Shown piece after piece: positions 14,137 through 49,267 of a DNA stretch of 64,000 nucleotides. Numbering within the stretch: position 1 is the first letter of the stretch; each line of letters opens with the position of its first letter. This stretch comes from an uncultured virus (IMG/VR IMGVR_UViG_3300027668_000012) (lineage: Duplodnaviria > Heunggongvirae > Uroviricota > Caudoviricetes): positions 1 through 64,000 of the IMG/VR virus record IMGVR_UViG_3300027668_000012, one strand, 5' to 3'. The notes beneath the pieces are model-generated. The model searched no databases and was not told where the DNA came from. It was given only the letters and a program-made list of their open reading frames with translations. The position numbers were made by a program, and so were the translations under genes.

Positions 14137-15972
14137 ATGGCTACTAATATCAAGTCAACCCAACTCGACTTTGCAACAATCAAAACAAGTCTTAAAACGC
14201 ACTTGTCACAACAAACCGAGTTCGCTGATTATAACTTTGAAGCATCTGGATTATCAAACATACTTGATGTCTTGGCACACAACACTCACTTCAATGGGTT
14301 AGTTGCAAACTTTGCCCTTAATGAATCATTTTTAAATACAGCACAATTACGATCATCTGTTGTGTCACATGCAGAAACACTTGGATACAATCCAAAATCA
14401 ATTACTTCTGCAACTGCACACGTAGCTCTATCGACTACTATTACTGCTGTAGGCAGACCAGCTACAATAACGCTACCAAAGTATTCTACTTTTACTACAA
14501 GTGTTGATGACATTTCATACACATTCTATACGCTTGAGGCACACACTGCTACTGATGACGGCACAGGTAACTATTCTTTCCTAAGTGCTCTTGGTACTAC
14601 GGCAATACCTTTAGTCGAAGGCACTCTAAAAACAAAAACATTCTATGTTGGTTCAGCCACAGATCGTCAGATTTATGTCATTCCTGAAACGTCCATTGAT
14701 ACAAAAACTGTTGCAATAAACGTATTCACTTCATCAGCTTCTTCTGATTTCATTGTGTACTCGGAATTACATAAGGCAATTACAGTTGACACAAGTTCAA
14801 GGCTTTTCCAATTAAGAGAATCCCCTAATGCTTTCTATGAATTATCATTCAGTGACGGCATTACAACTGGACTAGCTCCTGTTGCTGGCAATAAGATCGT
14901 TGTGTCGTACTTATCCTCTAAAGGTGCATTGTCAAATGGTGGTGCTACATACACTCCAACTAACACAATCACAGTTGATGGTACTGCTTATACTATTGTA
15001 TCAACGACATCTACAGTCGCAAGTGGCGGTGCAGACAAAGAAACAATAGAGTCTATTAGATCAAATGCTCCTATTGCATTCTCTGCTCAAAACAGACTTG
15101 TTACTGCCGACGACTATAAGGCTTTAATTCTTTCAAAATATCCAGCTGTATCTGATTGTATTGCTTGGGGCGGAGAAGATAACTTACCTACACCAGAATA
15201 TGGTAAAGTGTTTGTATCTCTCAAGTTTCCTGATACGACATCAGCCGCATCAAAGGTTGCTACTCAAGATGAAATCATAACTAATCTTATTAAGCCTTTG
15301 GCTATTATGACAATAGATACAAAGTTTGTTGATCCTGTTATAACGTTTCTTGAAACATCGACATTGTTTAACTTCAACCCTAATAAAACCAACGTCACAT
15401 TAAAAAGTGCCGAAACTAATGTTGCTACGATTGTGTCAAACTACTTTACAACTAATCTAAACGCATTCGGTAAAACATTCAGAAGGTCTAATTTACTTAC
15501 AGAGATTGATAACATAGGTGACTCTATTTTAAATTCAAAAATAGACCTAAAGTTGCAACGAAGGTTTGTGCCTACATTGGCAACATCCAAGGCATACGAT
15601 GTCACTTTCCCTGTCCAACTCGCCGTACCAGACGATGTTCACTATATTGTCAGTTCTAACACATTTACATTTAATAGTAAGCTATGTACTATACGCAATC
15701 TATTAAGTTCTACACAACTTCAAGTTGTTGATGCAGATGGTGGTATTCAAATCAGTAACGTGGGTACTTACAATGCTACGACTGGTGTTATTTCAATAAC
15801 AGGGTTTGCACCAGTATCAATTTCTGGTGGAGTTGATTATATTAGAATATCAGTAACTCCTGCAAATCAAGGAACTGTTACACCCCTTAGAAATTATGTA
15901 CTAAATATCGATACAACTAGATCGTTTACTGCTGGTACAGTAGATTACGGCAAGACACAAGTAGCCCTATAA
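14137..15972 (+). CDS. gp6: baseplate wedge subunit
   Basis: LDFATIKTSL, DYNFEASGLSNILDVLA, ESFLNTAQLRSSVVSHA, QNRLVTADDY, WGGEDN. Confidence 0.93.
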   Translation: MATNIKSTQLDFATIKTSLKTHLSQQTEFADYNFEASGLSNILDVLAHNTHFNGLVANFALNESFLNTAQLRSSVVSHAETLGYNPKSITSATAHVALSTTITAVGRPATITLPKYSTFTTSVDDISYTFYTLEAHTATDDGTGNYSFLSALGTTAIPLVEGTLKTKTFYVGSATDRQIYVIPETSIDTKTVAINVFTSSASSDFIVYSELHKAITVDTSSRLFQLRESPNAFYELSFSDGITTGLAPVAGNKIVVSYLSSKGALSNGGATYTPTNTITVDGTAYTIVSTTSTVASGGADKETIESIRSNAPIAFSAQNRLVTADDYKALILSKYPAVSDCIAWGGEDNLPTPEYGKVFVSLKFPDTTSAASKVATQDEIITNLIKPLAIMTIDTKFVDPVITFLETSTLFNFNPNKTNVTLKSAETNVATIVSNYFTTNLNAFGKTFRRSNLLTEIDNIGDSILNSKIDLKLQRRFVPTLATSKAYDVTFPVQLAVPDDVHYIVSSNTFTFNSKLCTIRNLLSSTQLQVVDADGGIQISNVGTYNATTGVISITGFAPVSISGGVDYIRISVTPANQGTVTPLRNYVLNIDTTRSFTAGTVDYGKTQVAL

Positions 15973-16967
15973 TGGTTCAACAAACATTACTTGATGAAGA
16001 TCGCAGAGGTCAGAATCTATCGACTAGCAAGATCCGAGAAGTTCTTCCTGAACACTACATAGCCGAGTATCCTAAGCTAGTAAGTTTTCTTGAGAAGTAT
16101 TACGACTATATGGATTCTGATGCAAATCATGGATTTGATAATGATATACAGAACTTATATAAGTTAAGAGACGTAAGGGCAACAGAACTTACCTATCTAA
16201 ATCAGATATTCGGAGAAATCGGTCAAGGTCTTGTGACTGCCGATTACTTTAAAGACCCACGGCTGATAGCTGGTATGCTTGCTGATAACTATAGAATTAA
16301 AGGTTCTTTATCTTCATCTGAAACTTTCTTTAGAACGTTCTATGGAGAGCAACCTGAGATTGTTTATCCTAAAGCTAACCTGTTTATTGTAGGTGAATCT
16401 AAAATTGGTTCTGAATCATTGAGATATATTCAGAATGGTGCGCTATATCAAGTATTATCTATATTAGTTCGTTCATCAGTACCAATTGCAAAGTGGAGAG
16501 ACTTATACAAATCGTTTGTGCATCCATCAGGCTTTTTTCTTGGTGGTGAAGTTATTCTTGAAAGTCTAGGAAACCTAAACTTAGGAACTCAACCTTTGGC
16601 TATCTTAGATAGTGATGCTGGTCAAGTTACATTACAACTTACAGGCACTCCATTAAGTATGACTGCCTTCACTTCTATCACTGGTATCTTTGATGATACA
16701 AGCGATTCAGGTCTTAATAAAGAACGTGTTGATCTTAATGCAACTGTTAAGGTATACAGCGAACTTACTGTTGCACAGTTTGATGCTATGTACAACGATA
16801 TTGAAGATGCTATTGACGCCAACTCACCTAGGTTCGATGAAGATAGTGACGGAACAATTAAAGCGGTTAAATTCTCTAACACATTCGAGACTATGGATCA
16901 ATCGTACTTTGACGGCAAGCATGGCTCTGTATTTGCAGACTCAGCTGGTGGTATATTAACTAGATAA
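15972..16967 (+). CDS. gp7: baseplate wedge protein (short gp7-like)
   Basis: LPEH...YPKLVSFLEKYY, YRIKGS...FFRTFYG, WRDLYKSFVHPSGF; follows gp6. Confidence 0.65.
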   Translation: MVQQTLLDEDRRGQNLSTSKIREVLPEHYIAEYPKLVSFLEKYYDYMDSDANHGFDNDIQNLYKLRDVRATELTYLNQIFGEIGQGLVTADYFKDPRLIAGMLADNYRIKGSLSSSETFFRTFYGEQPEIVYPKANLFIVGESKIGSESLRYIQNGALYQVLSILVRSSVPIAKWRDLYKSFVHPSGFFLGGEVILESLGNLNLGTQPLAILDSDAGQVTLQLTGTPLSMTAFTSITGIFDDTSDSGLNKERVDLNATVKVYSELTVAQFDAMYNDIEDAIDANSPRFDEDSDGTIKAVKFSNTFETMDQSYFDGKHGSVFADSAGGILTR

Positions 16968-17003
16968 AACAATAAGACTTGGCAAATCAACTCATATAAC
17001 TGT

Positions 17004-17011
17004 TATAAATA
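17004..17011 (+). promoter_or_regulatory. T4-type late promoter
   Basis: TATAAATA upstream of the gp9-like gene. Confidence 0.75.
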
Positions 17012-17043: not shown

Positions 17044-18033
17044 ATGACTAGGCAAAACATATCGATTGGAGCGGCTGCTAATGACGGCACAGGCGAAACT
17101 TTACGTTCTGCTGGTACTAAAATTAATTCCAATTTTGTAGAACTTTTTCAGAAATTAGGCGGAGACAGTGATGTTCTTTCGGCTGGTATCACTCTGACTT
17201 CAAACTCTATTGTCTTTGAAGGCGCATCTGCCGATAGCTTTGAAACAACATTACTTGTAACAGACCCGACTGCTGACAGAACAATAACAATACCCGATGC
17301 TGGTGGCACTGTAACATTAGATACAGGAACTTCAACGCTAACAAATAAGACTTTGACTTCTCCTGTCATAACAACACCACAAATTAATGACACGTCTGCC
17401 GATCACCAGTATGTGTTTGCTGTAAGTGAATTGAGTGCTGATAGGACTGTGACTTTACCTTTGTTGGCTGGAAATGATACGTTTGCTTTTGCTGGGTTTG
17501 CACAGACATTTACTAACAAGACTTTGACATCTCCTGTAATAAACACAGGTAAGTATGGCACGTCTTTAAATGACACTAATGGTAATGAGTTAGTTAAAGT
17601 AACTGCAACAGGTTCAGCAGTTAATGAAGTAACATTAGCCAATGCCGCAACAGGTAATAGTCCTACGATTATTGCAAGTGGTGGTGATACTAATGTTAAT
17701 GTTACAATTGGTGGTAAGGGTACTGGTTCTGCTGTACTTAATAAGCACGCAATCACATCTGCAACAATAACTGCAAATGGTGCGGCCTCTGCAACAGTAG
17801 GCTATATAATCTGTAATAAAGGTTCTGCATTAGCAGTGTCTTTAGCCGATGGTACAACAGTCGGTGAATCTAAAATATTTACAAACAAAGGAGCTGGAGT
17901 AGCTACTGTAACCCCTGCAAATTATGCACAGGGTTCTACATTTGCGCTAGCTCAATATGACGGCGCAACAGTTATCTGGGATGGTGCTAATTGGTATCTC
18001 GTTGGTAATCAATCAAGCGTTACAGTAGCTTAA
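17044..18033 (+). CDS. baseplate tail-fibre connector (gp9/gp10-like N-terminus)
   Basis: N-terminal QNISIGAAANDGTGETLRSAGTKINSNFVELF; LTNKTLTSP repeats. Confidence 0.7.
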   Translation: MTRQNISIGAAANDGTGETLRSAGTKINSNFVELFQKLGGDSDVLSAGITLTSNSIVFEGASADSFETTLLVTDPTADRTITIPDAGGTVTLDTGTSTLTNKTLTSPVITTPQINDTSADHQYVFAVSELSADRTVTLPLLAGNDTFAFAGFAQTFTNKTLTSPVINTGKYGTSLNDTNGNELVKVTATGSAVNEVTLANAATGNSPTIIASGGDTNVNVTIGGKGTGSAVLNKHAITSATITANGAASATVGYIICNKGSALAVSLADGTTVGESKIFTNKGAGVATVTPANYAQGSTFALAQYDGATVIWDGANWYLVGNQSSVTVA

Positions 18034-18045
18034 TAGGAAAAACAA

Positions 18046-19395
18046 ATGACAGGCATTATTACTGACAGTTTAAAAAGGGTACTTCTTGATAGTCTTATCG
18101 CAGAAGTTGGAACAACAGCAGCATCTTATTATATCGGTATAGGTAACTCTATCGATTGGGATAGTTCAGACACAGCTCCAACACCTGTTAATACTTTAAG
18201 AGAAGAACGTAATTTAAGATTGCAACTTCAATCAATTAAATCTGGTGAAGACGTTTCTTATGTTGTTCCTAGAAATAACTGGACAGCTGGTACACTTTAT
18301 GATGGTTGGGACGATAACATAGCTTCGCATCCTACTACACCATACTTTGTTATCACAGACGATAATGCAGTGTATATTTGCCTACAACAAGGTAAAGACT
18401 CGACTGGTGCGGCTGTAGCATCTACTGTAGAACCAACTGGCTCTGCAACATCATCATTCTTATTAGCCGATGGTTACACTTGGAAATTCCTTTACACCCT
18501 TTCTGCTACAGACGCAAACAAGTTTCTTTCTGCAAACTTTGTTCCTGTAAAATTGATTGGGACAACAGACAGTTCGTCAGCGGCGGCTTTAGTAGAACAA
18601 AAGGGCGTACAGACAGCGGCAATATCAGGTCAAATCGGTAGTATTCGTGTTGTATCTGGTGGTACTGGTTATTCATCAATTCCTACAGTCACAGTAGTTG
18701 GTGATGGTGACAGTTGTACAGCCACGGCAATTATAAGTGGTGGCGCAGTCGTAGACATCCTATTAGATTCAAATGGTACTGGTGGCATTAGACACGGACA
18801 TGATTTCACTAAAGCTACTATAACATTCGGTGCTGGTTCTGCTACGGCACGTGCTGTACTTTCTCCTAATAAGGGTTTTGGTGCAAACGCTTTAAATGAC
18901 CTTAGAGCAAAGGCTGTTATGTTCAATACAAAACCAGCTGGCAATGAAACAAACACATTTATAACTGATAATGATTTCCGTCAAGTAGCTTTAATTAAAA
19001 ATCCATTAGTCCCTACAACTGATTCCGACTTTACAGCGGCATCTGGATTTGCTCTTAAAAGTTTATTAGTAGCATCACAGACGACAGCATTCACTCCTGA
19101 TAATACTATCTTAGGTGGGTCTTCTGGTGCTAAAGCATACGTTGATACATATAGCACATCGACTAAGATAATACGTTACCATCAGACAGAGGACACAGGC
19201 TTTACTGCATTTACAACTGCCGAAGCCTTGACTGAGACAGATGGTAATGGTGCTGGAACACTAGATAGTGCAAGTACATGGACAACTCCAAACATTAACA
19301 TAAATTCAGGTGAAGTGTTGTATGTTGAAAATAGAGCCGCTATTACTAGAGCCACAGACCAAACCGAAGATATTAAAATCGTAATTCAATTGTAA
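18046..19395 (+). CDS. gp8: baseplate wedge subunit
   Basis: VVPRNNWTAGT.Y, VYICL, DGYTWKFLY, NDFRQVALIKNP, SGEVLYVENRAAITRATDQTEDIKIVIQL. Confidence 0.9.
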   Translation: MTGIITDSLKRVLLDSLIAEVGTTAASYYIGIGNSIDWDSSDTAPTPVNTLREERNLRLQLQSIKSGEDVSYVVPRNNWTAGTLYDGWDDNIASHPTTPYFVITDDNAVYICLQQGKDSTGAAVASTVEPTGSATSSFLLADGYTWKFLYTLSATDANKFLSANFVPVKLIGTTDSSSAAALVEQKGVQTAAISGQIGSIRVVSGGTGYSSIPTVTVVGDGDSCTATAIISGGAVVDILLDSNGTGGIRHGHDFTKATITFGAGSATARAVLSPNKGFGANALNDLRAKAVMFNTKPAGNETNTFITDNDFRQVALIKNPLVPTTDSDFTAASGFALKSLLVASQTTAFTPDNTILGGSSGAKAYVDTYSTSTKIIRYHQTEDTGFTAFTTAEALTETDGNGAGTLDSASTWTTPNININSGEVLYVENRAAITRATDQTEDIKIVIQL

Positions 19396-19407: not shown

Positions 19408-22400
19408 ATGGTAAGCAACGTTACAAGCACCAGCTTTAGTCAGACATACAGAGATGATTTCGCAGACAGCGATAATTATCACAGAATACTTTTTAATTCG
19501 GGTTCAGCACTTCAAGCAAGAGAGTTAACCCAACTTCAAACGATTATTCAAAGAGAAGCAGAGCAACATGCTCGTTTTGTATTTAAAGAAGGTGCGCCTG
19601 TCCATTCGGGTGGTATTCAATTAGATACAAGATTTGAATTTGGTAAACTAGATACTACTACATATGCTTTACCTACAACGTTCTCTGCTTTAATCGGTGA
19701 AATTTTTACTGGACAAACATCTACTATTAAAGTTCGCATTGTTGAAATCAAAGCAGCGGCTGATGGTGACCCTGCAACAATCTTTGTTGAGTATGTAAAT
19801 AACAATTCAATTTCTGGTACCACCACACCTGTTCGTTTAACACCAGGTGAAGTTATCAATGGCGATGTCAGTGGAACAAACTTACAAGTACAATCTACTA
19901 ATACTACTGCAAATCCAGCTGTTGGGCGTGGTACAAGGCTCTCGGTAAAAGAATCAGTATTCTTCGTAAGCGGTCACTTCGTTCAGTCTAATGCGCAAAG
20001 CATTGTTATTTCTAAGTATTCAAGTACACCTACGGCTGTAGTTGGTTTTACTGTTTCAGAACAAGTTGTTAAAGCGGCTGATGATACTGCACTTTACGAC
20101 AATTCAACAGACACACCAAACTTGACTGCTCCTGGTGCAGACAGATATAAGATTACATTAGCACTGGCATTACAAGCTAATGTTTCTGCTGGTACTACAT
20201 TCATTCCATCCTTTGATATTGTCAATGGATTAATGGCGGCTGTTAAGTCTGCTGGTGATAGGAGCTTGAGTGTCGTAGGCGACATCTTGGCTCAAAGGAC
20301 ATTCGAAGAGTCTGGTAACTATACAGTTAAGCCATTCATAATAAAAACCCAAGCCAACGATTCTGATGCAACTAAACTTGATATAACAATCAATGCTGGT
20401 ATTGCTTATGTAAAAGGTAAAAGGTTCGAATCTTATAACCCAATACGAATTCCTATTGACAAGCCAAGAACAACTACTACAGTAAACAATGATGTTGTTG
20501 CCTCAGAGTATGGTAATTACATTTTATCTTTGACTAAGTTAGGCTTGCCAAACATTACAACTATGGCTAATGTCAATTTAAGATCGGCTGTTACTCATGG
20601 TGGTGCAACTATTGGTACGGCTAGAATAAGGTCTATTGAGAAATTTGGTTTGTATTATAGAATATACATCTTTGATGTTGTAATGGCTTCGGCTAAACAG
20701 TTTAGTGCTGTTAGAAGTATAGGTCTTAGCACTACTAACTATGCTGATCTTGTTCTTGAAAATAGTGTTGCTGTAATAAAAGACACTTCTAATAATAACT
20801 TATTGTTCCCTTTATCAGGTATCAGACCTTCTGCCATAACTGACATATCATTGACGACACAAAGACGTTTCACTGGTACTGCAGCGGCTAACGCTACATT
20901 GGCTCTTTCATTGTCTGCAACAGGCGAGACTTTTGCCAACTCTACAAATTGGTTACTATCAACAGATTCTTCTGGTGTAGAAAGTGCGATTACTGTGACT
21001 GCTGGTGGTAACGGAACTACAGGTGTTACATTAGGAACGCTTCAAAAATCTTCTGCTGTTTCATTGTTAGCCTATGTCAACAAAGGTGCTGCCACAGTAA
21101 AAACTAAAGCATTAACAAATAGAACGGCTACTATTTCTCCTGAAAGTGACGACACAGTTCAGCTAGAGCGTGGTGACATATTTAGAATTAATGAAGTACG
21201 AGATGCTACATCTGCTGGTAATGTCATTACAGACTATTATGTACTTGACAATGGACAAAGAGATAACTTCTATTCGGAAGGCATTCTAACATTACGTGCT
21301 GGCTTTTCTGCTCCAAGCGGTGATGTTTATGTTAACTTTGATCACTTTGCACACGGAGCTGGCGGAGACTTCTTTGCTGTAAATTCTTACACTGGTCAAG
21401 TTGAATATGAAGACATTCCATCATACAGACAAAAGAATGGTGAGACTGTTTCTTTAAGAGACGTATTAGACTTTAGACCTTTACGTGCTAACACTGCATC
21501 TGACTTTACTTCAACTGGTGCGGTAACTGTAGAAATTCCAGCTAACACTGATCTTATTACTACAGACATTGCTTACTATCTTGGTCAAGGTTACAGAATT
21601 GTATTGAATAAAGCAGGCACATTTGAAGCGGTTGCTGGTGAAAGGTCATTATTTCCTATACACCCATCCGTTCCTGATAATGCAATGGAACTTGCTAGAC
21701 TATCTATAAATCCTTACACATTGAATGATAGCGATGTATCTATGACGTATGTTGATAACAGACGTTACACTATGAGAGATATATCTGATCTTGAAACACG
21801 TATGGACAAGATTGAAGAAATTACTACATTAAACATGCTTGAGCTAGAAACTGCTACTTTAGAAGTTCTTGACTCGGCTGGTGTTAATCGTCTAAAAGTT
21901 GGCCTAACTGCCGACAACTTTACAGACCACTCACAAAGTTTAAGAACTGCATTAGATTATCGTGCATCTACTGATGTATTCAATAGAGAATTAAGACCAT
22001 CATTTGTTGCAAACAGTTCTGAACTTGTTTATGACTCTGATGCTTCTGATCGTGTGTCCTTAATAGGCGATACAGTATACCCTCTTTATGAAGAAGTTGT
22101 ATATGCTTCAAATACTCAGGCATCCAGTGCAACATCAGTAAACGCATTTAACTTAGGTGTGACTATTGGGCATATTAAAATGTCACCATCTACTGATACA
22201 TGGTTCGACACCTCTCGTTTACCTGCTAAGATTGTTGACGGCGGAACAAAGCTAGACCCAGCAAACACTTCCTTGTGGAATGATTGGGGCTTTAACTGGT
22301 CAGGTGTACAAGCAGATTCATTAAAAGCCGGTTACTCTGAAAGTAAGACTTCAAAGAATGGTCGAACGACTTCTACTGTAACAAGTACAATTGTCAAGAG

Positions 22401-23070
22401 TGAAACAGTCGTGACATCAATGGCAGACGAAATACTTTATGAAACATCTATTCAATACCAAAGAGAACGATTTATATTCTTTAAAGCGCAAGGCTTGAGA
22501 CCTAATACTCGTTACTTCCCATTCTATGACGAAACTGATATTTCTGCTTTTGTTCAAACAGGTTCAGGAAAGTTCCAATACTTTGCGGCACAAGCGACTA
22601 ATTCTAATTATCTTGATCCTGGTGATAAGTACATCAATGAAACAGAATTCCCACCTACTTTAGGCGGTAAGACTGCATCCATATTATCAGATGCTAATGG
22701 TGCAATTGAAGGTATTATCTTTGTGCCAAATAAGAATGCAACTAAATTCTTAACAGGAACAAGACAATTTACGCTTATAGATATTAGTGAGCTAAATAGA
22801 GTTAACGCAACATCATACGCATCGTCTGACTTTGTTTCAACTGGTACTATGCAACATTATCAAGAAGATATTAAACACACTAGAAGGCACGCTATTCAAA
22901 CAACAGTTCAAACTACACAAGATCCTAGTTACAACAACACTAGTTCTGGCGATAACGACCATCGTGATTTTGCTGGAAATGGGGCCAGTTATGATGATGG
23001 TGAGATAGGCGGTACAGATAAGTATGATGCTGTCAAAGCTGCAGCACATTACAGCACCAAGTGGGATTAA
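19408..23070 (+). CDS. large virion structural protein (VrlC/DUF4815-like), N-terminal part
   Basis: YRDDF...YHRILF...LQARELTQLQ, APGADRY, RTFEESGNY, DNGQRDNFY, NRRYTMRDI, DNF. Confidence 0.8.
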   Translation: MVSNVTSTSFSQTYRDDFADSDNYHRILFNSGSALQARELTQLQTIIQREAEQHARFVFKEGAPVHSGGIQLDTRFEFGKLDTTTYALPTTFSALIGEIFTGQTSTIKVRIVEIKAAADGDPATIFVEYVNNNSISGTTTPVRLTPGEVINGDVSGTNLQVQSTNTTANPAVGRGTRLSVKESVFFVSGHFVQSNAQSIVISKYSSTPTAVVGFTVSEQVVKAADDTALYDNSTDTPNLTAPGADRYKITLALALQANVSAGTTFIPSFDIVNGLMAAVKSAGDRSLSVVGDILAQRTFEESGNYTVKPFIIKTQANDSDATKLDITINAGIAYVKGKRFESYNPIRIPIDKPRTTTTVNNDVVASEYGNYILSLTKLGLPNITTMANVNLRSAVTHGGATIGTARIRSIEKFGLYYRIYIFDVVMASAKQFSAVRSIGLSTTNYADLVLENSVAVIKDTSNNNLLFPLSGIRPSAITDISLTTQRRFTGTAAANATLALSLSATGETFANSTNWLLSTDSSGVESAITVTAGGNGTTGVTLGTLQKSSAVSLLAYVNKGAATVKTKALTNRTATISPESDDTVQLERGDIFRINEVRDATSAGNVITDYYVLDNGQRDNFYSEGILTLRAGFSAPSGDVYVNFDHFAHGAGGDFFAVNSYTGQVEYEDIPSYRQKNGETVSLRDVLDFRPLRANTASDFTSTGAVTVEIPANTDLITTDIAYYLGQGYRIVLNKAGTFEAVAGERSLFPIHPSVPDNAMELARLSINPYTLNDSDVSMTYVDNRRYTMRDISDLETRMDKIEEITTLNMLELETATLEVLDSAGVNRLKVGLTADNFTDHSQSLRTALDYRASTDVFNRELRPSFVANSSELVYDSDASDRVSLIGDTVYPLYEEVVYASNTQASSATSVNAFNLGVTIGHIKMSPSTDTWFDTSRLPAKIVDGGTKLDPANTSLWNDWGFNWSGVQADSLKAGYSESKTSKNGRTTSTVTSTIVKSETVVTSMADEILYETSIQYQRERFIFFKAQGLRPNTRYFPFYDETDISAFVQTGSGKFQYFAAQATNSNYLDPGDKYINETEFPPTLGGKTASILSDANGAIEGIIFVPNKNATKFLTGTRQFTLIDISELNRVNATSYASSDFVSTGTMQHYQEDIKHTRRHAIQTTVQTTQDPSYNNTSSGDNDHRDFAGNGASYDDGEIGGTDKYDAVKAAAHYSTKWD

Positions 23071-23112: not shown

Positions 23113-24714
23113 ATGTCATCTACTTCTGAATTAATCCAACCGATTGCCCAAACGTTTAGGGTCAATCAGGTTTCAGGAATATACATAACTAAAATAGGTA
23201 TCTATTTTGCAACTAAAGCGGCAGATGCAGACTATCCTGTTCAACTTAGTATAAGACCTACTGTTAATGGTGTTCCTGATTCTAGTAAGATAATCGAAAA
23301 CAGTGTCTCTTTTAAAGCGGCAAGTGACATAACTGTGTCTGCTACAGCGGCTACAGAAACAACTTTCACTTTTGAAGAACCAGTATACCTTGAAGGTGGC
23401 AAAGACTTTGCTATTTGCATACAATCAAATGCTCTTGGTAATGCATATCAAGTGTGGACTGCTAAGTTAGGTGACTTCAAACTAGGTTCAACAACAGAAA
23501 GACTTCAAACAGATCCATACGCAGGCATATTCTTTAAGTCTGCTAATGGTAGAGTATTTGAAGCGGATCAGACTCGTGATTTAACTTTTAAAGTATATAG
23601 AGCCAACTTCACAGGCACTAACGCATTAGTAAGATTTAATGCGGCTCCGCCACCTGTAAAATCATTAACAAGTAATCCGTTTCTATTTGCGGCAAGTGAT
23701 GCAACTGTTACTGTTGCACATCCTAACCACGGCTTTCAAGTAAATGACGTCGTACATATATCTTCTGACTCAAGTGGGTTAGATTCTGCTACTAGCATCA
23801 ATGGTGTTTTAGGTGCAAGTATCTTAGGATCAAGAGCTGTTACTCACATTGATGGTACTGGCTATAAATTTGAAATGGACAGTTCGGCAGACTCAGCTAT
23901 ATTCGGTGGTGGTAATAGCATCCTTGCTACACAACAATATATCATAGATAGCTTTAAGCCTAATATTGAAATACTTCAACCAAATGGCACAAATCATCGC
24001 ATGGTAGCTGGTCTAACAACTTCTAAATCTTTTGGTGGTGGTGAAACTGCTTATGGGACTTTACCTAAACACGCAACAGCAAACAAAATGGATACGTTCT
24101 TAAATTCTCCAGCTGTTATTGCGACTGCTGTTAGAGACACAGCCCTTACTAGGTCTTCTTATACTATTGATTTGGAGTTAGTGACAACAAGTTCATATGC
24201 GGCTCCTTCTGTAGACTTACAAAGAGCTTCTGTTATATCAGTCCACAACATTATTGATAATCCAGATTCAGCGGCAACAACTGGATTTAACGTCCCATTA
24301 AGCTATGTAGCTGAGACAGTTGCAAACTTTGGATCTACCTTGGCTAAACACATATCAATACCTGTTTTATTAGCTGAACCTGCAACTGGTATTAAAGTCC
24401 TTGTTGATGTCAATAGACCTCAGGGTACAGACTTTGATCTTTTCTATAAAGTGTTAGATGCTGGTGGTGACGTAAGCATTGAAGACACTGCTTGGATAGA
24501 GGCATCAAAAGTAGAACCTGATTCAAATCATAATACGCTTCCTATTGATACAAATTATAACGTATTCAGAGAGTATAAATATGTCATAGGTGGAACATAT
24601 CAAGGAGACCTTGCACCATTTACTACTTACCAAATTAAAATAGTAATGCGTTCAACATCGTCAACAGACGTACCTAGATTTAAAGCGTTAAGAACTATTG
24701 CATTAGGCACATAA
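23113..24714 (+). CDS. VrlC/DUF4815-like structural protein, C-terminal part
   Basis: PIAQTF, ITKIGIYFATK, FEEPVYL, FFKSANG...DLTFKVYRANF, FTTYQIKIVM...VPRFKALRTIAL. Confidence 0.75.
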   Translation: MSSTSELIQPIAQTFRVNQVSGIYITKIGIYFATKAADADYPVQLSIRPTVNGVPDSSKIIENSVSFKAASDITVSATAATETTFTFEEPVYLEGGKDFAICIQSNALGNAYQVWTAKLGDFKLGSTTERLQTDPYAGIFFKSANGRVFEADQTRDLTFKVYRANFTGTNALVRFNAAPPPVKSLTSNPFLFAASDATVTVAHPNHGFQVNDVVHISSDSSGLDSATSINGVLGASILGSRAVTHIDGTGYKFEMDSSADSAIFGGGNSILATQQYIIDSFKPNIEILQPNGTNHRMVAGLTTSKSFGGGETAYGTLPKHATANKMDTFLNSPAVIATAVRDTALTRSSYTIDLELVTTSSYAAPSVDLQRASVISVHNIIDNPDSAATTGFNVPLSYVAETVANFGSTLAKHISIPVLLAEPATGIKVLVDVNRPQGTDFDLFYKVLDAGGDVSIEDTAWIEASKVEPDSNHNTLPIDTNYNVFREYKYVIGGTYQGDLAPFTTYQIKIVMRSTSSTDVPRFKALRTIALGT

Positions 24715-24929
24715 TGGATTTAGTGAAGGTAGAAGGTCATAGCGGATTAGCAAGAGATAAAAATACAGGTGCTATAATTAATATAAATAGCACTGAGATC
24801 AATCGCATTAAGAACCTCAGGGTAAACCAAAGAGAGACTAAGGCGGCTGAAAGGGAAGAAATTAACCAGCTTAAAAGTGATGTAAAAGATATTAAAATGA
24901 TGTTAAGCCAGATTATAGAGAAGTTATGA
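24714..24929 (+). CDS. small conserved T4-like hypothetical protein (coiled-coil C-terminus)
   Basis: KVEGHSGLARDKNTGAIIN...EINQLKSDVKDIKMML; translationally coupled. Confidence 0.75.
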   Translation: MDLVKVEGHSGLARDKNTGAIININSTEINRIKNLRVNQRETKAAEREEINQLKSDVKDIKMMLSQIIEKL

Positions 24930-24930: not shown

Positions 24931-25251
24931 ATGTCATTAATCAACGTTGATCTTTCAACTACAATTGCTAGTTGGAGAGATAAAACAAATCAACTTGGAA
25001 TATTGCAAGGTGATCTTACATCTTTGACGGACTCTGCAACATCACTTGTTGTTGCTGTTAATAAAGTCCACTCAGATGTTGATAGTGATGTATTATCATT
25101 AAGGACTAATTTTTATGGTGATAGTGGTGGAGTTCTTTCATTGGCATCTTTGACTACTACAAACAAAACATCGCTGGTAAGCTCTGTTAATGAGTTGAAT
25201 AGACGATTACCAAATGTGTATAACGCAGCTGGTACTTTACTGAACACATAA
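24931..25251 (+). CDS. short fibre/adaptor-like virion protein
   Basis: Fibre-like N-terminus TIASWRDKTN; C-terminal NVYNAAGTLLN shared with the 1292-aa fibre. Confidence 0.6.
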   Translation: MSLINVDLSTTIASWRDKTNQLGILQGDLTSLTDSATSLVVAVNKVHSDVDSDVLSLRTNFYGDSGGVLSLASLTTTNKTSLVSSVNELNRRLPNVYNAAGTLLNT

Positions 25252-25261: not shown

Positions 25262-26467
25262 ATGAGTGTCCCAATTAAATTAAGTGATACCAATGGTAAC
25301 TTGAAAGAGATGACCACGACTGAGGAAGCATATCTTTCGTATCAAGCTGGATTACATCTTGCCGCACAAGCTCAAACTGCTGTAGCCGCTTTAACAACAT
25401 CTAATTCAAGTTCTACTAATATAGGAACGTACTCAAACACATTCTTCAACCAAGCAATTGGCACACATCCAGGTTCTGGTATCAGTACAGGTACAACTAA
25501 TACAGTTCTATTTCAAAAGTCTGGTTCTGTAGCAACTAATGGTGGCGATTTTCACAGACCTATAACGTGGGATGATGATAACACCGCAACAGATGAATTC
25601 ACAGATGCAAATATGAATACGCTTTTAGCTCGTTTGTCTGCTGTGGTATTCGCAGGCAATTATCCAGGCACTTACAAGTTAGCCTCGTCTACTCCTGGTT
25701 CAGATTACGACGAACATTTGGCAGACGTCTTTACTGACACACAAGCATCAAATGGTAGCACAATCACACATAGTATTTGGCAACGTCAAACAATGACGGC
25801 TCCTACAGCAGTTCGTCCTGTCAAGATAAAAAATGACGATTCAAGCTTCGATGGTCTACAAGAAATGGACGATGCAGAAATTAAACATACATTCGGTACT
25901 TGGTTACGAAAGTACACAATGGCGGCGGCAAATAATGTTGGTGCATATCAATTAAGATCATCTGCTAATGGTGTACCATCTGCAACTGGAACTTGGCAAG
26001 CACAAGGTACAGCAACAGATACAAAGAAAACAACTTCAGATGTAACCTACTCAGCAGATTATTCTGGGACTTATGCTGGTACCTACTCAGCAGATTATTC
26101 TGGTACTTACTCAGCTACTTACTCAGCAGATTATTCTGGTACTTATGCTGGTACTTACTCAGCAGGTTATGTAAATCCAAATGGTGCAAACTTTCAAAGA
26201 GTGCGTACAGTTATTTATTATGAAGGCGGTGGTCAACAATTCCAGTATGTGGCAAACTTCTTAGGTGCGGCAACGTTTACTGGTAACTATGTTGGTAACT
26301 ACACTGGTGCTTATACTGGTAACTATGTTGGCAACTACACTGGTGCTTATACTGGTAACTACGTTGGCAACTACACTGGTGCTTATACTGGTAACTATGC
26401 AGGCGAAACTATTGGTTCTGGCGTTGGTACAATTGAAACATATACTTTGTATGTACGTAAAGCTTAA
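25262..26467 (+). CDS. putative fibre/needle structural protein with two Tyr-based tetrapeptide repeat arms
   Basis: Thr/Ser/Gly-rich; repeats (YSAD/YSGT/YAGT) and (YTGN/YVGN/YTGA). Confidence 0.65.
   Translation: MSVPIKLSDTNGNLKEMTTTEEAYLSYQAGLHLAAQAQTAVAALTTSNSSSTNIGTYSNTFFNQAIGTHPGSGISTGTTNTVLFQKSGSVATNGGDFHRPITWDDDNTATDEFTDANMNTLLARLSAVVFAGNYPGTYKLASSTPGSDYDEHLADVFTDTQASNGSTITHSIWQRQTMTAPTAVRPVKIKNDDSSFDGLQEMDDAEIKHTFGTWLRKYTMAAANNVGAYQLRSSANGVPSATGTWQAQGTATDTKKTTSDVTYSADYSGTYAGTYSADYSGTYSATYSADYSGTYAGTYSAGYVNPNGANFQRVRTVIYYEGGGQQFQYVANFLGAATFTGNYVGNYTGAYTGNYVGNYTGAYTGNYVGNYTGAYTGNYAGETIGSGVGTIETYTLYVRKA
26045..26170 (+). repeat. coding tandem repeat, 36-nt unit x~3.5
   Basis: Unit ACCTACTCAGCAGATTATTCTGG(G/T)ACTTATGCTGGT with variants. 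Confidence 0.85.
26276..26407 (+). repeat. coding tandem repeat, 36-nt unit x~3.5
   Basis: Unit ACTGGTAACTA(T/C)GTTGG(T/C)AACTACACTGGTGCTTAT. Confidence 0.85.
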
Positions 26468-37114: not shown

Positions 37115-38032
37115 ATGGCAACCAATGCATACTTCAATGTCGGCGTTAAAAGCGAACAGACATTATATGAAGACATAATAATTGAGTCTCTACAAATGTA
37201 TGGTCAAGACGTTTTCTATATTCCTCGTGAATTAGTAAACGAAGATCGTATATTTGGTGACGACTCTGTTTCTAAATTTAAAAAATCTCATAAGATTGAA
37301 ATGTATATTGAGAACCTAGAAGGTTTTGATGGTGAAAGAGACTTGTTTTCAAAATTCGGTGTTGAGATAAGAGACGAAGCAACGTTTATTGTTGCACGAC
37401 GTCGCTTTGATCAATTAGTCGGTAAGAATGATATTGCTTTCTATAGACCTAGAGAAGGTGATTTAATACATTTGCCTATGTCAAACTCTACTTTTGAAAT
37501 TCAAAAGGTCGAAGACGAATCGCCTTTTTATCAGCTTAAGAATCTACCAACATTTAAAATGCGTTGTTCTCTATTCGAATACAATGATGAAGATTTTGAT
37601 ACAGGTGTCAAAGCTATTGATGATATTGAAAAGCATAGTGCCTATCAAATGGATCTTACATTACATCAAGATTCATCAAGCGCAACTTTGTTCCAAGTTG
37701 GCGAAAACGTTTCACAGACACTTGACAGTGACCTTGGAATATTTATGAGGGGTGAAGTCGTCGCATTTGCACCAGCGGCTAACTTTGCTTCTGATTCTGA
37801 TAGCGTGTTATCTTTGGCTCACATTGGTTCTACAGATGGTAAGTTCCGTGAATTCCTTGACTCTGGAACAATCACAGGTCTAACATCGGGTGCAAAAGGT
37901 GTCGTACAGGCTAGTGGTGTTGTAGAGGATAATAGAATTTCTGACGATGAACAAAATGCTGATTTTAAAACCATAGCTGGTGGCTTCTTAGACTTCTCTG
38001 AAAGCAACCCATTTGGTGACGTGGAGACTTAA
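37115..38032 (+). CDS. gp14: neck protein
   Basis: EQTLYEDIIIESLQMYGQDVFYIPR, SKFGVEIRDE, RPREGDLI, DFSESNPFG. Confidence 0.93.
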   Translation: MATNAYFNVGVKSEQTLYEDIIIESLQMYGQDVFYIPRELVNEDRIFGDDSVSKFKKSHKIEMYIENLEGFDGERDLFSKFGVEIRDEATFIVARRRFDQLVGKNDIAFYRPREGDLIHLPMSNSTFEIQKVEDESPFYQLKNLPTFKMRCSLFEYNDEDFDTGVKAIDDIEKHSAYQMDLTLHQDSSSATLFQVGENVSQTLDSDLGIFMRGEVVAFAPAANFASDSDSVLSLAHIGSTDGKFREFLDSGTITGLTSGAKGVVQASGVVEDNRISDDEQNADFKTIAGGFLDFSESNPFGDVET

Positions 38033-38035: not shown

Positions 38036-38818
38036 ATGTTTGGTACATATTTCTATCATCAAAGAATTCGTAAATCAGTTGCCGTGTTTGGCAGTCTGTT
38101 TAATAACTTACATGTGTTACGTAAGAACTCTGCTGGCGCAGTAATAAGTCAAGTTAAAGTACCATTGACATATGCGCCTAAACGTGATTTTATTGAACGT
38201 CTTAGATCACAGACTAATGGTGAAGATGCTGAAAGACAATTGGCTATCAAACTTCCTCGCATATCATTCGAGATTGTTAATATTGTTTATGATCCAGTCA
38301 GACAATTAAGTAAGGTCAATCAGTTTAACACTACAGGCACTAGTGTTTACGATAGAAACAAAGTTAAAACACCAGTACCTTATAATATAAACTTTCAATT
38401 AAACATCTATGCAAAGTCTCAAGATGATGCGTTACAAATAGTTGAACAGATTGTTCCTTACTTTGCTCCACAATATACTTTAACAATAAAGCCTATTGCA
38501 GGTGAAGATATATTAGAAGACAGCCCTATTTCTTTGCAGAGTGTTTCATTCACAGACGACTATGAAGGTGCTTTAGAGCAAAGACGTAGTATTCTTTACA
38601 CTTTAGACTTTGAAATGAAAATTAATTTCTATGGTCCTGTTACAACTGGTAAGATTATACGTCAAGCAGACATGAAATTACACACTATAAATAGTGGTAT
38701 AAAAGACTCTGATGAGTTAGTTTCAACAATCAGAGTGATACCTAACCCAGCATCCGCAAGTCCAGATAGTGATTATGGATTTACGACAACATTCTATGGA
38801 GCTTTAGATAGCGCATGA
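38036..38818 (+). CDS. gp15: tail sheath stabilizer / tail terminator
   Basis: YFYHQRIRK...FGSLFNN, VPLTYAPK, LPRISFE, PVPYNI, LQIVEQIVPYFAP. Confidence 0.93.
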   Translation: MFGTYFYHQRIRKSVAVFGSLFNNLHVLRKNSAGAVISQVKVPLTYAPKRDFIERLRSQTNGEDAERQLAIKLPRISFEIVNIVYDPVRQLSKVNQFNTTGTSVYDRNKVKTPVPYNINFQLNIYAKSQDDALQIVEQIVPYFAPQYTLTIKPIAGEDILEDSPISLQSVSFTDDYEGALEQRRSILYTLDFEMKINFYGPVTTGKIIRQADMKLHTINSGIKDSDELVSTIRVIPNPASASPDSDYGFTTTFYGALDSA

Positions 38819-41515: not shown

Positions 41516-43255
41516 ATGGCAATATTCAGTCCATCAGAATCCCCAGCAATTGTAGTCAAAGAAGTTGATTTAACTGGCGTAGTGCCAAATGTACAATCGA
41601 CAACAGGCGCATTTGTAGGTGATTTTAGATGGGGACCAGTTAGAAAAGCTACTCTGATAGACACAGAGGCTAATCTTGCGGCGACATTCGCTTCCCCATC
41701 ATCTACTAAGGCTGTAGACTTTCTGTCTGCCGCATACTATTTAAAATATTCAAGTTCTCTACAAGTGGTACGAGAAGCTACAGCGCATGCATACAATGCA
41801 AACTCCGCAGGGCTAACGTTACTTGTGAGAGAAGAAGAGCACTTTGACTCGTTATCAAGTACGTTTGGTTCTGACTCTGGTGACACAAATGCTGGTGGTT
41901 GGATTGCAAGATATCCAGGCGCACTAGGTAACTCTTTAAGAGTTTCTTTATGTCCAGCAGGCTCAGATTCTTCAGGCACATACTTTTCAGTATGGGGTCA
42001 AAGAGCGGCTTTCGATTCACCACCAGTAACATCTGCCTATGGATTAGCAAGAAGTGCTGTAAATGACGAAGTACACGTTGCAGTTATAGACGAGGATGGT
42101 CTGTTTACAGGAACTCCTGGTACTATATTAGAGCGTTACGCATTTGTCTCTGTTGCATCTGATGCAAAATCTTCAGACGGATCATCTAATTATGTTAAAG
42201 ACGTAATTAATAGTGCATCTAAATATGTTTACCTTGCAACTTTTGAAGGTACATTAGCTGCACTAACTAATGCTGGCACAGCCGCTCAAGGTACAACGTA
42301 TCAAGCATCTGCATCTGCTCCAATAACATCTAGTTTAACTGCTGGTGCTGATTCAGCCGCACTTACTGCAAGTAAGTATGGCACAGGTATGGCATTGTTT
42401 AGTGACGTTGACACAATTACTGTTGACTTCTTAATCGCTCCTGGTATGTCAGCACAAGGTGATATGACAACTGTTGTTAATAACATGATTGTAATTGCTG
42501 GAACTACACGTAAAGATTGTGTCGTAGTAGCATCACCTAACAGAGCTGCAGTTGTGAATGCATCAACACCAGTTGCTACTTCAATTGTAACAACAGACAC
42601 GTTTACAAGGTCGTCTTACTTGGTTGTTTCAAACAACTATCTTAAAGTATATGACAAGTACAATGACCAATATATCCAAATTCCAGACGCATCTTCGGTT
42701 GCAGGTATTATGGCGGCTTCTGATCTTCAAGCGGCACCTTGGTTTTCACCAGCTGGTCAAAGACGTGGTTCAGTTTTAGGTATAACTGCCTTAACATATT
42801 CTCCGACTAAAGCAGAACGAGACACACTATATAAAGCTGGTATTAATCCAGTTGCAAATATTCCTGGTCAAGGCGTATTGTTATTTGGTGATAAAACATT
42901 CTTAGCCAGACCATCAGCTTTCGATCGTATCAACGTTCGTCGCTTGTTCCTGACTATGGAAAGAGCAATTGCAATTGCTGCAAGAAATGTTATGTTTGAA
43001 TTCAATGACGAATTTACACGTGCAGAATTTGTAAACATCGTAGAACCTTTCTTGAGAGAAATCCAAGGTCGTCGCGGTATTACAGATTTCCGTGTTGTTT
43101 GTGACGAATCAAATAACTCCGCAGCCGTTATAGATAGAAATGAATTCATAGCAAATATCTTCATCAAGCCTGCACGTTCAATCAACTACGTTACACTAAA
43201 TTTCGTAGCTGTTAGAACTGGTGTAGACTTCGAAGAAGTTGTTGGCTCGGTCTAA
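41516..43255 (+). CDS. gp18: tail sheath protein
   Basis: SPAIVVKEVDLT, FRWGP, PWFSPAG..RG, FDRINVRRLF, FEFNDEFTR, IKPARSINYVTLNFVAVRTG. Confidence 0.96.
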   Translation: MAIFSPSESPAIVVKEVDLTGVVPNVQSTTGAFVGDFRWGPVRKATLIDTEANLAATFASPSSTKAVDFLSAAYYLKYSSSLQVVREATAHAYNANSAGLTLLVREEEHFDSLSSTFGSDSGDTNAGGWIARYPGALGNSLRVSLCPAGSDSSGTYFSVWGQRAAFDSPPVTSAYGLARSAVNDEVHVAVIDEDGLFTGTPGTILERYAFVSVASDAKSSDGSSNYVKDVINSASKYVYLATFEGTLAALTNAGTAAQGTTYQASASAPITSSLTAGADSAALTASKYGTGMALFSDVDTITVDFLIAPGMSAQGDMTTVVNNMIVIAGTTRKDCVVVASPNRAAVVNASTPVATSIVTTDTFTRSSYLVVSNNYLKVYDKYNDQYIQIPDASSVAGIMAASDLQAAPWFSPAGQRRGSVLGITALTYSPTKAERDTLYKAGINPVANIPGQGVLLFGDKTFLARPSAFDRINVRRLFLTMERAIAIAARNVMFEFNDEFTRAEFVNIVEPFLREIQGRRGITDFRVVCDESNNSAAVIDRNEFIANIFIKPARSINYVTLNFVAVRTGVDFEEVVGSV

Positions 43256-47887: not shown

Positions 47888-47911
47888 ATTTAATTAATAG
47901 GAATACATCCA

Positions 47912-49267
47912 ATGATGGAATCATATGACAGTTTAGTCAAAAAATGGGCACCAGTTCTTAATGAAGAATCTGCGCCTTCAATCAAAGACAAGCATCGCCG
48001 TTCGGTTACTGCTGTCACTTTAGAAAACCAAGAGAAAGCACTAAATGAAGAGCGTGCTCAATCAGGTTTCTTAGCGGAAACACCAAACAACGTTGGTTCT
48101 TCTGCAGCTAATTGGGATCCAGTTTTAATCTCTTTAGTACGTCGTTCAATGCCAAACATGATCGCATACGATTTATGTGGTGTACAGCCAATGACAGGTC
48201 CAACTGGCTTGATCTTTGCAATGAAGTCACGTTATACAGCTGGTACAACTGGTTCAACAGAAGCTTTATTCAACGAAGCAGATACAGTATTCTCTGGTGA
48301 CTCAAGTGTGACACAAAGTGCTGGTGCATCTGGCTTAAATGGTTTAACAGATGACTCGTCTGCAACTTCTGGTGTAGCTAATTCATACAACCTAAAAGAC
48401 AGCTCAATCAACAATGAGCGTACAGGTCCAATATTTGCTGGTGGTATGCCAACAGGCGACGCAGAAGGATTAGGTAGCACAGCTTCTACTTTCAACGAGA
48501 TGGGTTTCACAATTGAAAAAGCTACTGTGACTGCAAAATCACGTGCTTTGAAAGCTGAATACTCATTAGAGCTTGCACAAGACTTGAAAGCAATTCACGG
48601 CTTAGACGCTGAAACTGAATTAGCTAACATCTTGTCAACAGAAATCTTAGCTGAGATTAACCGCGAAGTAATTCGTTCAATCAACAGCCAAGCTAAAACT
48701 GGTGCATTGTCAACTAACGTTGCTATCCAAGGTATCTTTGACTTGTCAACAGATGCAGATGGTCGTTGGTCAGTAGAGAAGTTCAAAGGTTTGATCATGC
48801 AGATCGAACGTGAAGCTAACGTAATTGCAAAAGAAACACGTCGCGGCAAGGGTAACTTCATCCTATGTTCATCTGACGTAGCTTCTGCATTAGCGGCTTC
48901 TGGTATGTTGGATTATACTCCAGCATTGTCAGTAGATCTACAAGTAGACGATACAGGCAACACATTCGCTGGTGTTATGAATGGTCGTACACGTGTGTAC
49001 ATCGATCCATATGCAGTTGCAGATTACGTAACTGTAGGCTATAAAGGTACAAACGCATACGATGCTGGTATCTTCTATTGCCCATACGTACCATTAACTA
49101 TGGTTCGTGCAGTTGGTGAGAATGACTTCCAACCGAAAATCGGATTTAAGACACGCTACGGCATGGTCTCAAACCCATTCGTTGGTTCAACACCAAATGA
49201 CGGATTAGCTACTGCTAAGACTAACCAATACTACCGAATCTTCCGTGTAGACAACATCCTACAGTAA
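47912..49267 (+). CDS. gp23: major capsid protein
   Basis: LVRRSMPNMIAYDLCGVQPMTGPTGLIFAM, TAKSRALKAEYSLELAQDLKAIHGLDAE, FQPKIGFKTRYG. Confidence 0.98.
   Translation: MMESYDSLVKKWAPVLNEESAPSIKDKHRRSVTAVTLENQEKALNEERAQSGFLAETPNNVGSSAANWDPVLISLVRRSMPNMIAYDLCGVQPMTGPTGLIFAMKSRYTAGTTGSTEALFNEADTVFSGDSSVTQSAGASGLNGLTDDSSATSGVANSYNLKDSSINNERTGPIFAGGMPTGDAEGLGSTASTFNEMGFTIEKATVTAKSRALKAEYSLELAQDLKAIHGLDAETELANILSTEILAEINREVIRSINSQAKTGALSTNVAIQGIFDLSTDADGRWSVEKFKGLIMQIEREANVIAKETRRGKGNFILCSSDVASALAASGMLDYTPALSVDLQVDDTGNTFAGVMNGRTRVYIDPYAVADYVTVGYKGTNAYDAGIFYCPYVPLTMVRAVGENDFQPKIGFKTRYGMVSNPFVGSTPNDGLATAKTNQYYRIFRVDNILQ

Follow-up and report, generated by a model that had tools for sequence, protein, structure and literature searches.

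The window analysed here is a 64,000-nt stretch of DNA from an uncultured virus, positions 1 to 64,000 of IMG/VR record IMGVR_UViG_3300027668_000012, a 78-kb virus record estimated to be 46% complete. Between 15972 and 49267 it encodes virion proteins in which a short Asp-Ser motif, D-S-(A/D/S), recurs, and within the same region lies a five-gene cassette of candidate glycosyltransferases (GT1 to GT3) and an oxygenase-like protein (26504-29820). Pfam and PHROGs matches place the inner baseplate and hub genes at 1447-15972, the outer baseplate genes at 15972-24714 and a fibre module at 24931-36296, followed by gp13, gp14, gp15, terminase, sheath, tube, portal, protease, scaffold and the major capsid protein (to 49267), with the replication genes downstream of 49267. 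The phage is a marine T4-like myovirus. Its capsid protein shares 67.5% identity with the Phage C48C1 protein and ~60% with its counterparts in cyanophages and in pelagiphage HTVC008M. C48C1 is the only close deposited phage genome (gp15 identity 56%); a nucleotide-level search of deposited phages found no relative, a literature search on C48C1 returned nothing relevant, and no tRNA genes were found within the window. Boxes resembling T4-type late promoters, TATAAATA, number 19 in the window against 7.8 expected, a count reached by 0 of 100 shuffles, and most of them stand directly upstream of + strand virion genes (for example at 6020, 13564, 17004, 24782, 29816, 31217, 41444 and 43810).

We calculated expectations from each protein's own composition, with shuffle controls, for a virion set of 23 proteins (8,736 aa) encoded at 15972-49267, leaving out the cassette, the terminase and a QueC-like protein. 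The dipeptide DS occurs 96 times in this set against 51.1 expected, which none of 2000 shuffles reached, and it ranks first among all dipeptides with an expectation above 3. Composition therefore does not explain the DS frequency, and the enrichment is stronger than had first been stated in the sequence-only reading of this DNA, which proposed that DS sites on surface proteins are O-glycosylated by enzymes of the phage cassette. For D-S-[ASDG], the count is 70 against 17.2 (z 13.1; 0/2000 shuffles); the other 43 window proteins (11,373 aa) contain 34 DS against 54.8 and 6 D-S-[ASDG] against 14.0. The null model is calibrated, since the four control phages T4, P-SSM2, HTVC008M and C48C1 give observed/expected ratios (O/E) near 1 (0.87-1.11 for DS and 0.82-1.20 for D-S-[ASDG]). 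A scan over all 8000 tripeptides ranked DSD, DSA and DSS first, second and fourth; the third, GNY, comes from a tandem repeat in the protein at 25262..26467.

Each position of the motif is specific. At the position before Ser, DS[ASDG] was found 70 times against 17.4 expected in this comparison, compared with 14 against 16.3 for NS[ASDG] and 8 against 10.6 for ES[ASDG]. The middle position accepts Ser only (DT[ASDG] 18 against 19.5; DG[ASDG] 15 against 16.2). After Ser, enrichment is seen for DSD (21 against 3.8, 5.5x), DSA (24 against 4.9) and DSS (20 against 4.5, 4.4x), and not for DSG (5 against 4.1), DST (3 against 5.0), DSN (3 against 3.1), DSE (0 against 2.4), DSI (0 against 3.2) or DSV (4 against 3.8). 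The motif is thus sharply limited to D-S-(D/A/S), for which N, E, T and G are no substitutes. A DNA-level signal is ruled out, as 11 different hexamers write DS; the motif acts at the protein level. Copying of one repeat unit is also ruled out. Full flanks are available for 62 sites; for 60 of them no other site matches more than 6 of the 14 flanking residues, and the last two form a single duplicated pair in the fibre. The surroundings of the motif show a preference for hydrophobic residues at -3, -1 and +7/+8 and for G at +3.

Within the window, the motif follows the surface of the particle. The 15 outer proteins encoded at 15972-38818, cassette excluded, contain 63 D-S-[ASDG] against 13.2 expected, compared with 0 against 6.8 in the 13 proteins (4,713 aa) of the inner baseplate and hub (Poisson P 0.001). 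This bears out the earlier observation that the motif is dense in exposed virion proteins; the outer proteins to which it is restricted have several unrelated folds. In the cassette, the five proteins together have 0 against 1.2, and DS is found at most once in each of gp13, tube, portal, protease and scaffold. The low counts reported for internal and non-structural proteins also hold (UvsW 0, TerL 1, portal 1, the protein at 1447..3306 1, gp46-like protein 2, gp6 1).

The genes carrying the motif all lie on the + strand. In the outer baseplate, the wedge protein at 15972..16967 (gp7-like N-terminal part; Pfam Baseplate_wedge, E 2.4e-11) has 5 DS, all of them D-S-[ADG]; the gp9/gp10-like protein at 17044..18033 (Pfam T4_gp9_10_N, E 5.4e-8) has 2; the wedge protein gp8 at 18046..19395 (Pfam Phage-Gp8; phrog_438, E 1.4e-86) has 9 against 2.9 expected; the large DUF4815 virion protein at 19408..23070 (Pfam DUF4815, E 2.4e-47) has 7 against 7.8, six of the seven being D-S-[ASDG]; and the virion protein at 23113..24714 (phrog_358, C-terminal part) has 8 against 3.1. 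The fibre module opens with a small fibre-like protein (24931..25251; 3 against 1.1, all D-S-[ADG]) and a 401-aa Tyr/Gly-rich protein built of GNYxG tandem repeats (25262..26467), which is not enriched (1 against 1.8). The repeats of the latter read YSADYSGTY... and GNYVGNYTGAYTGNY..., give only weak glycine-zipper matches in Pfam, and are of the type that makes GNY the most over-represented tripeptide in relatives. Downstream of the cassette, a 118-aa protein (29854..30210; phrog_1084/phrog_3304), whose gene, next to the cassette, served as the anchor below, has 3 DS, two at conserved positions, and is followed by a 330-aa fibre or baseplate-connector-like protein (30220..31212; 8 against 3.0, 7 of them D-S-[ASDG]), a small fibre protein (31268..31753; 5 against 1.4), a fibre protein with an Mtd_N-type N-terminus (31772..32398; Pfam Mtd_N, E 3.6e-9; 3 against 1.1) and the 1292-aa tail fibre (32418..36296; PHROG tail-fibre families; 18 against 6.1, 14 of them D-S-[ASDG]). 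The last includes IDSADSAGDSFKFSYDSA at residues 665-682, and a PDB search with it found no relative. The neck protein gp13 (36358..37113; phrog_211) has no DS and is a contrast case to gp14 (37115..38032; Pfam T4_neck-protein; 6 against 2.7) and the tail terminator gp15 (38036..38818; Pfam T4-gp15_tss; 4 against 1.4). For the 1292-aa fibre, 30220..31212, 31268..31753, gp8, 23113..24714, gp14 and the wedge protein, these counts reproduce in every case those made by eye in the sequence-only reading. The tail sheath (41516..43255; 5 against 3.5) carries its DS in Ser/Gly-rich loops, and the major capsid protein (47912..49267; Pfam Gp23) has three DSS in a variable Ser/Gly-rich loop (residues 130-165).

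The structural settings of the sites are varied, comprising starts of short helix-like units, hairpin or inter-strand loops, the Ser/Gly-rich loops of capsid and sheath, and the C-terminus of gp15, which has three DS in its C-terminal tail and ends in ...LDSA. The sequence-only reading had called for the sites to be placed on predicted structures. In an AlphaFold2 (AF2) model of gp14, five of the six DS lie at inter-strand loops of the C-terminal beta-domain, a placement that concerns only the usable part of a poor model (mean predicted local distance difference test score, pLDDT, 54.4; ~residues 190-270 used, pLDDT about 59-81).

We then compared the window with relatives gathered from IMG/VR as 80 loci via gp14, 27 via GT3 and 80 via the 118-aa gene. 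By a longest-ORF rule, and after removal of sequences nearly identical to the window phage itself, these gave 1,773 unique open reading frames (ORFs; 670,637 aa), whose pooled counts include related sequences and are not phylogenetically independent. DSA occurs 1668 times against 319 expected (5.2x), DSD 1429 against 322 (4.4x) and DSS 622 against 359; the remaining DSX tripeptides are near or below 1, DTA is depleted (151 against 364), and DxD with other middle residues is flat (DGD 0.8, DAD 1.1, DND 0.5). The motif is clade-wide among these uncultured relatives, which are called marine because they resemble marine cyanophages and pelagiphages and not on the strength of their IMG/VR viral-contig records. 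Pooled by family, D-S-[ASDG] is high in gp15 (6.7x), the 118-aa protein (5.5x; 146 against 26.5 in 85 unique orthologues), the capsid protein (4.6x, n=6), gp14 (3.2x), DUF4815 (2.9x; 121 against 41.8) and the sheath (2.3x; 95 against 42.0 in 34 orthologues), and low in gp13 (0.33; 6 against 18.4 in 68 orthologues), the tube (0 against 4.8), the scaffold (0 against 5.8), GT1 (0.18) and the oxygenase-like cassette protein A2 (0.19). The pooled QueC-like orthologues (n=9) have an unexpectedly high count, 10 against 1.6.

The same division between outer and inner proteins is seen in four long records. Homologues of the outer proteins have DS[AD] observed/expected counts of 44/7.3 in the phage's own record and 51/9.4, 60/9.8 and 64/9.3 in the others, compared with 1/4.6, 1/4.0, 3/3.9 and 3/3.4 for inner virion-protein homologues. 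Non-structural proteins have 2/5.2 in the own record and 10/12.2 and 13/9.9 in two others; in G008, where the structural span is the whole record, the remaining, mostly non-structural ORFs have 16/17.4. Avoidance of the motif in non-virion proteins, which the non-outer proteins of the window had seemed to show (4 against 13.3, P 0.003), fails in the non-structural proteins of relatives and was dropped. Among outgroups, outer-protein homologues have 1/1.8 in T4, 1/4.4 in P-SSM2, 10/10.0 in HTVC008M and 22/10.0 (2.2x) in C48C1. T4, P-SSM2 and HTVC008M lack the enrichment and C48C1 shows it only weakly, and the motif as a general trait of T4-like fibres is ruled out by the outgroup phages without it. 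D-S-(A/D/S) is a clade-specific surface motif of the peripheral baseplate, fibres, gp14, gp15 tail, sheath loops and capsid loop.

Orthologue alignments show that some motif sites are old and others lineage-specific. Sites 224, 244 and 258 of gp15 are conserved in 52-53 of 69 orthologues, and DSA or DSx closes the gp15 C-terminus in most of the 69; site 227 of gp14, a DSD, is conserved in 46 of 69. In the capsid protein, the loop that opens with FSG-DS in the clade opens with FSGDA in C48C1, FSGTG in HTVC008M, FSGQP in P-SSM2 and FSGQG in T4.

The cassette lies on the + strand between the baseplate and fibre genes. Its first gene, P0 (26504..26974), encodes a 156-aa protein without DS that matches phrog_27823 only and is conserved upstream of GT1 in relatives. 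GT1 (26955..27698) is a candidate nucleotide-sugar transferase with an invariant D84-A85-D86 (alignment A1); its Protein Atlas features match, at 0.97, clusters carrying Nucleotid_trans or GT8, which is a lead only. None of eight family members matches Pfam, a GT1 profile search of the PDB gave nothing significant (four matches, best E 0.64, no glycosyltransferase among them), and no relation to GT3 was detected. GT2 (28403..29068) is a GT8-like candidate glycosyltransferase (phrog_1962, E 3.2e-5) with an invariant D62-I63-D64 (alignment A5). It scores 19.6 bits against Pfam GT8, under the 24.3 cut-off, and 1 of 11 members of its family matches Pfam, below threshold; all 20 of its PDB profile hits, each sub-threshold (E 0.06-0.49), are GT8 proteins, either glycogenin or Skp1 alpha-GalT. 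GT3 (29038..29820; phrog_1962, E 2.6e-9), with an invariant D89-L90-D91 (alignment A3), is a paralogue of GT2 (hhalign of A5 against A3, probability 98.9%, E 1.1e-17); 0 of 15 members of its family match Pfam. PDB searches with profiles A2 and A3, and with a DS-rich protein of the relative G005, found nothing significant. Of the glycosyltransferase cassette proposed earlier, then, the phrog_1962 assignment of GT2 and GT3 and the conserved D-x-D metal/nucleotide-sugar motif of all three candidates stand, while none reaches the curated Pfam threshold for GT families; by sequence, they appear only weakly recognisable as transferases.

A2 (27702..28406), the oxygenase of the sequence-only reading, is predicted to have the double-stranded beta-helix fold of 2-oxoglutarate (2OG) oxygenases and to be prolyl-hydroxylase-like, its nearest proteins being prolyl 4-hydroxylases. 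The metal-binding residues agree only in part: H140-N141-N142 and H201 are invariant in 11 of 11 sequences, with Asn in place of the carboxylate, so that the canonical H-x-D/E...H iron triad was found in none of the 11. In the predicted structure, H140 ends strand 136-140 and H201 starts strand 201-204, which are the canonical places, and the invariant R209, at the start of strand 209-215, is a candidate binder of the 2-oxoglutarate carboxylate by position rather than by residue-level alignment. Searches gave 1,015 matches for A2 and 302 for A3; among the 120 listed for each, the source names are without exception 'hypothetical protein' or bare gene descriptors, and none has a Pfam domain on record. 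Of 110 loci anchored on the 118-aa gene, 55 keep the P0-GT1-A2 trio directly upstream of it (for example L043:1623-3476 and L087:7479-9373), and a hydroxylate-then-glycosylate pathway by the GT1/A2 block is conceivable. As the nearest late-promoter-like box upstream of the cassette, TATAAATA, lies at 24782..24789 (+), late co-expression of the cassette, GT2 and GT3 included, with the fibre genes is likely; 24931-29820 is probably co-transcribed, and the earlier placing of transferase-like genes inside a late fibre module stands, lateness being deduced from this box.

Among the replication genes, a second oxygenase-type gene (59917-60483), unrelated to A2, codes for 188 aa with a JmjC_2 (cupin oxygenase) domain. 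The QueC-like gene (40803-41438), situated between the terminase and sheath genes, and a Mom-family gene (61757-62410) near the DNA polymerase gene together suggest hypermodification of DNA bases. On the - strand, adjoining the baseplate genes, 5518-6012 encodes a 164-aa protein that matches a TnsA-like endonuclease N-terminal domain (E 1.8e-19).

We tentatively favour, at somewhat less than an even chance, the explanation that D-S-(A/D/S) is a recognition tag for post-translational modification of its serine, with glycosylation as the leading chemistry. The serine would be modified after translation by an enzyme that reads the motif, and the leading candidate for this step would be O-glycosylation by a phage-encoded, late-expressed transferase. 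We infer the existence of an enzyme that reads the motif, the sugar nature of the modification and the identity of the enzyme that would attach it; the GT2/GT3 pair and the pair of GT1 and A2 are candidates only, and the comparative data single out neither. Four properties of the motif argue for a recognition tag and would not be expected from generic turn or cap propensities: its sharp three-residue specificity, its many independent occurrences with unique flanks, its limitation to outer proteins of unrelated folds, and its limitation to one clade although the folds are shared. The variety of structural settings and the presence of transferase-like genes in the late fibre module point the same way.

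What weighs against a recognition tag is, to begin with, the failure to connect it with an enzyme. We know of no transferase reported to read D-S-(A/D). Among the 110 anchored loci, some of which overlap on the same contigs, D-S-[ASDG] O/E is 1.30-5.92 in the 55 that carry the trio, 1.48-6.64 in the 25 with only GT2/GT3-type genes, and 1.11-6.69 in the 30 with neither, which may have a transferase farther off. No gene family divides DS-rich from DS-poor loci among 141 non-redundant loci: median O/E is 3.46 against 2.74 for the GT3 family (Mann-Whitney p 0.0009) and about 3.3 against 2.8 for the trio families (p 0.03-0.08), effects similar in size to those produced by the stretch of genome that a locus happens to span. 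G005 (152 kb, 86% complete) reaches an O/E of 3.0 in locus L119 without homologues of A1, A3 or A5, whereas trio-only records can be as low as 1.3-1.7, and C48C1 has GT1, A2 and a GT3-like gene yet shows its enrichment of 2.2x only. Whole-record profile searches found A3 in 3 of 15 records, A1 in 0 of 5 and A5 in 0 of 5. G005 instead has another glycan island (L199:6480-13765, L197:9392-11018) with a GT8, a methyltransferase, UDP-galactopyranose mutase (GLF), an NAD-epimerase and two GT25; elsewhere in its record are a cupin, a cytidylyltransferase and a UDP-glucose dehydrogenase. PF01973 (Maf-type, MptE-like) was found in 0 of 5 records (G000, which is 46% complete, G005, G008, G007 and C48C1) by a search that matched 5 of 14 known genomes as a control. 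Since transferases of some kind occur in every large record examined, their mere presence has no discriminating power, and the 20-kb loci are too short to identify a co-varying enzyme. A link of the motif to GT2/GT3 or to the trio was thus not found in either locus or whole-record comparisons and is not supported, so that the comparison of relatives with and without the genes, proposed in the sequence-only reading, did not support its claim that this cassette writes sugar on the DS sites. The observation in that reading is confirmed, and its interpretation as a whole is partly supported.

Known systems offer precedents and no exact match. SdgA and SdgB glycosylate the Ser-Asp repeats of staphylococcal adhesins; as there, an Asp-flanked serine (DSD) would be the acceptor, but the sites here are isolated rather than tandem SD repeats, as their unique flanks show, and DSA is equally enriched. 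In mycobacteriophages, the glycosylated parts are Ser/Thr-rich stretches at the C-termini of capsid and tail-tube subunits. A 2023 study by Freeman et al. in Cell Host Microbe, to go by its title, reportedly describes glycosylation of mycobacteriophage virions by phage-encoded glycosyltransferases, and this precedent argues for a recognition tag. The likeness lies in transferase genes beside structural genes and a proposed sugar coat on the virion; here, however, the acceptor would be one particular tripeptide that recurs in many outer proteins of a myovirus and is known from sequence alone. Literature searches on phage virion glycosylation gave no paper on a D-S motif in phage virion proteins among their results, which does not prove that there is none. 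Prolyl hydroxylation and glycosylation of Skp1, and the viral collagen prolyl hydroxylase, differ in that the triad of A2 is H-x-N...H and that the trio does not track the DS motif. The general O-glycosylation system of Bacteroidota acts outside the cytoplasm on exported proteins, and virions assemble in the cytoplasm. The sequence-only reading had likened the motif to the sequon of that system, and the analogy did not survive. In the available text of PMC8550257, the sequon is D-(S/T)-(A/I/L/V/M/T); it resembles the present motif in the Asp directly before the acceptor Ser, and DSA conforms to it, but Thr is unused here (DT 47 against 56.3 expected, and the depletion of DTA in relatives) and D and S are favoured at +1, where I, V, T, L and M are not. 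D[ST][AILVMT] itself is not significant in the virion set (57 against 45.5, reached by 96 of 2000 shuffles), and we rejected this sequon because Thr is not accepted and the +1 preference is wrong. A further known system is the host recognition cluster of pelagimyophages, in which GT8-type transferases lie among the fibre genes (Zaragoza-Solas et al. 2020; PMC7029224). Such transferases among the tail-fibre genes of marine T4-like pelagiphages have thus already been described, and they resemble the GT8-like candidates here; as far as the available text of that paper goes, they are read as modifying the host O-chain, and no virion-protein motif is named.

The main rival is a structural cap specific to this lineage: D-S plus a small residue would be the clade's favoured helix N-cap or beta-turn starter (an Asx/ST-turn) in surface loops and fibre units, with nothing attached. 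The remaining points that weigh against a recognition tag belong here. The motif opens regular short units (VDSAYVxxR) in the fibres of relatives, which suits a helix cap; the DS-rich fibres of G005 show tandem units TDSASIVGLIDSAYIQARQ and VDSAYVALRE; and the three conserved gp15 sites are aligned with positions at which outgroups carry acidic residues, DSDYGF standing opposite DDDFGF in HTVC008M and GDDFGF in P-SSM2. Apart from any cap, the near-expected counts in the non-structural proteins of relatives also weigh against a tag, the motif not being generally avoided there. A cap would also agree with the hairpin-like context of the conserved site in the 118-aa protein (...YDVEIS-x-x-DSDG-x-TIIERV...), with the five gp14 sites between strands in the moderately confident part of its model, with the hydrophobic and G preferences around the motif, and with the conservation of several sites over long divergence. 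Generic capping, on the other hand, would also favour N, T, G and E, none of which is enriched, and DTA is depleted; the same folds occur in T4, P-SSM2 and HTVC008M without the motif. The motif is present, too, in Ser/Gly-rich loops that are flexible, and it supplies the three final residues of gp15. Since 60 of the 62 sites are independent, they are not explained by inheritance of a single repeat unit. A lineage-specific cap is a real possibility to which we would nevertheless give the minority share of belief.

Of the two alternatives to glycosylation named in the sequence-only reading, this capping one is kept, and the other, cation binding, is the weaker. Small acidic or Ca2+/Mg2+-binding patches might make the outer virion proteins more stable in seawater: among the window's variants DSD is enriched most, the gp15 alignment sets DSDYGF opposite acidic outgroup sequences, and the relatives are likely marine by their likeness to cyanophages and pelagiphages. 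But DSA, with one acidic residue, is enriched as much as DSD, DxD with other middle residues is not enriched, and the marine P-SSM2 and HTVC008M lack the enrichment; we consider this explanation very unlikely. The cassette, for its part, may have a job unrelated to the motif, such as remodelling of host envelope glycans, the role put forward for transferases of the pelagimyophage host recognition clusters, or a Skp1-like pathway in which A2 and the neighbouring transferase would hydroxylate and then glycosylate one protein. We give such an unrelated job a chance only just short of even, and it can be combined with any explanation of the motif. The late virion module position of the cassette and its lack of a promoter box of its own fit a virion-related role at least as well, and the activity of the proposed hydroxylase is uncertain because H-x-N replaces the canonical H-x-D/E.

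Taken further, the recognition-tag explanation would mean that, in a large and uncultured clade of marine T4-like phages, virions receive an outer coat from an undescribed serine-specific system with the sequon D-S-(A/D), a proposal that we hold to be rather unlikely as it stands. The sequon would be read in the cytoplasm, late in infection, by an enzyme from uncharacterised phage families that may be GT8-like or partnered with a prolyl-hydroxylase-like protein. Should D-S-(A/D/S) prove to be a modification tag, the fibres, baseplate, neck, sheath and capsid of abundant ocean phages would be covered with sugar or another coat. This would matter for host recognition, for how well the particles resist proteases and grazers and how sticky they are, and for the interpretation of virion structural models, and it would add a new bacterial-type sequon. 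If it is a structural cap, it would still be a lineage-specific building rule, one that the folds of T4, P-SSM2 and HTVC008M do not follow. Under either reading, the motif is a simple sequence marker that separates outer from inner virion proteins in this clade.

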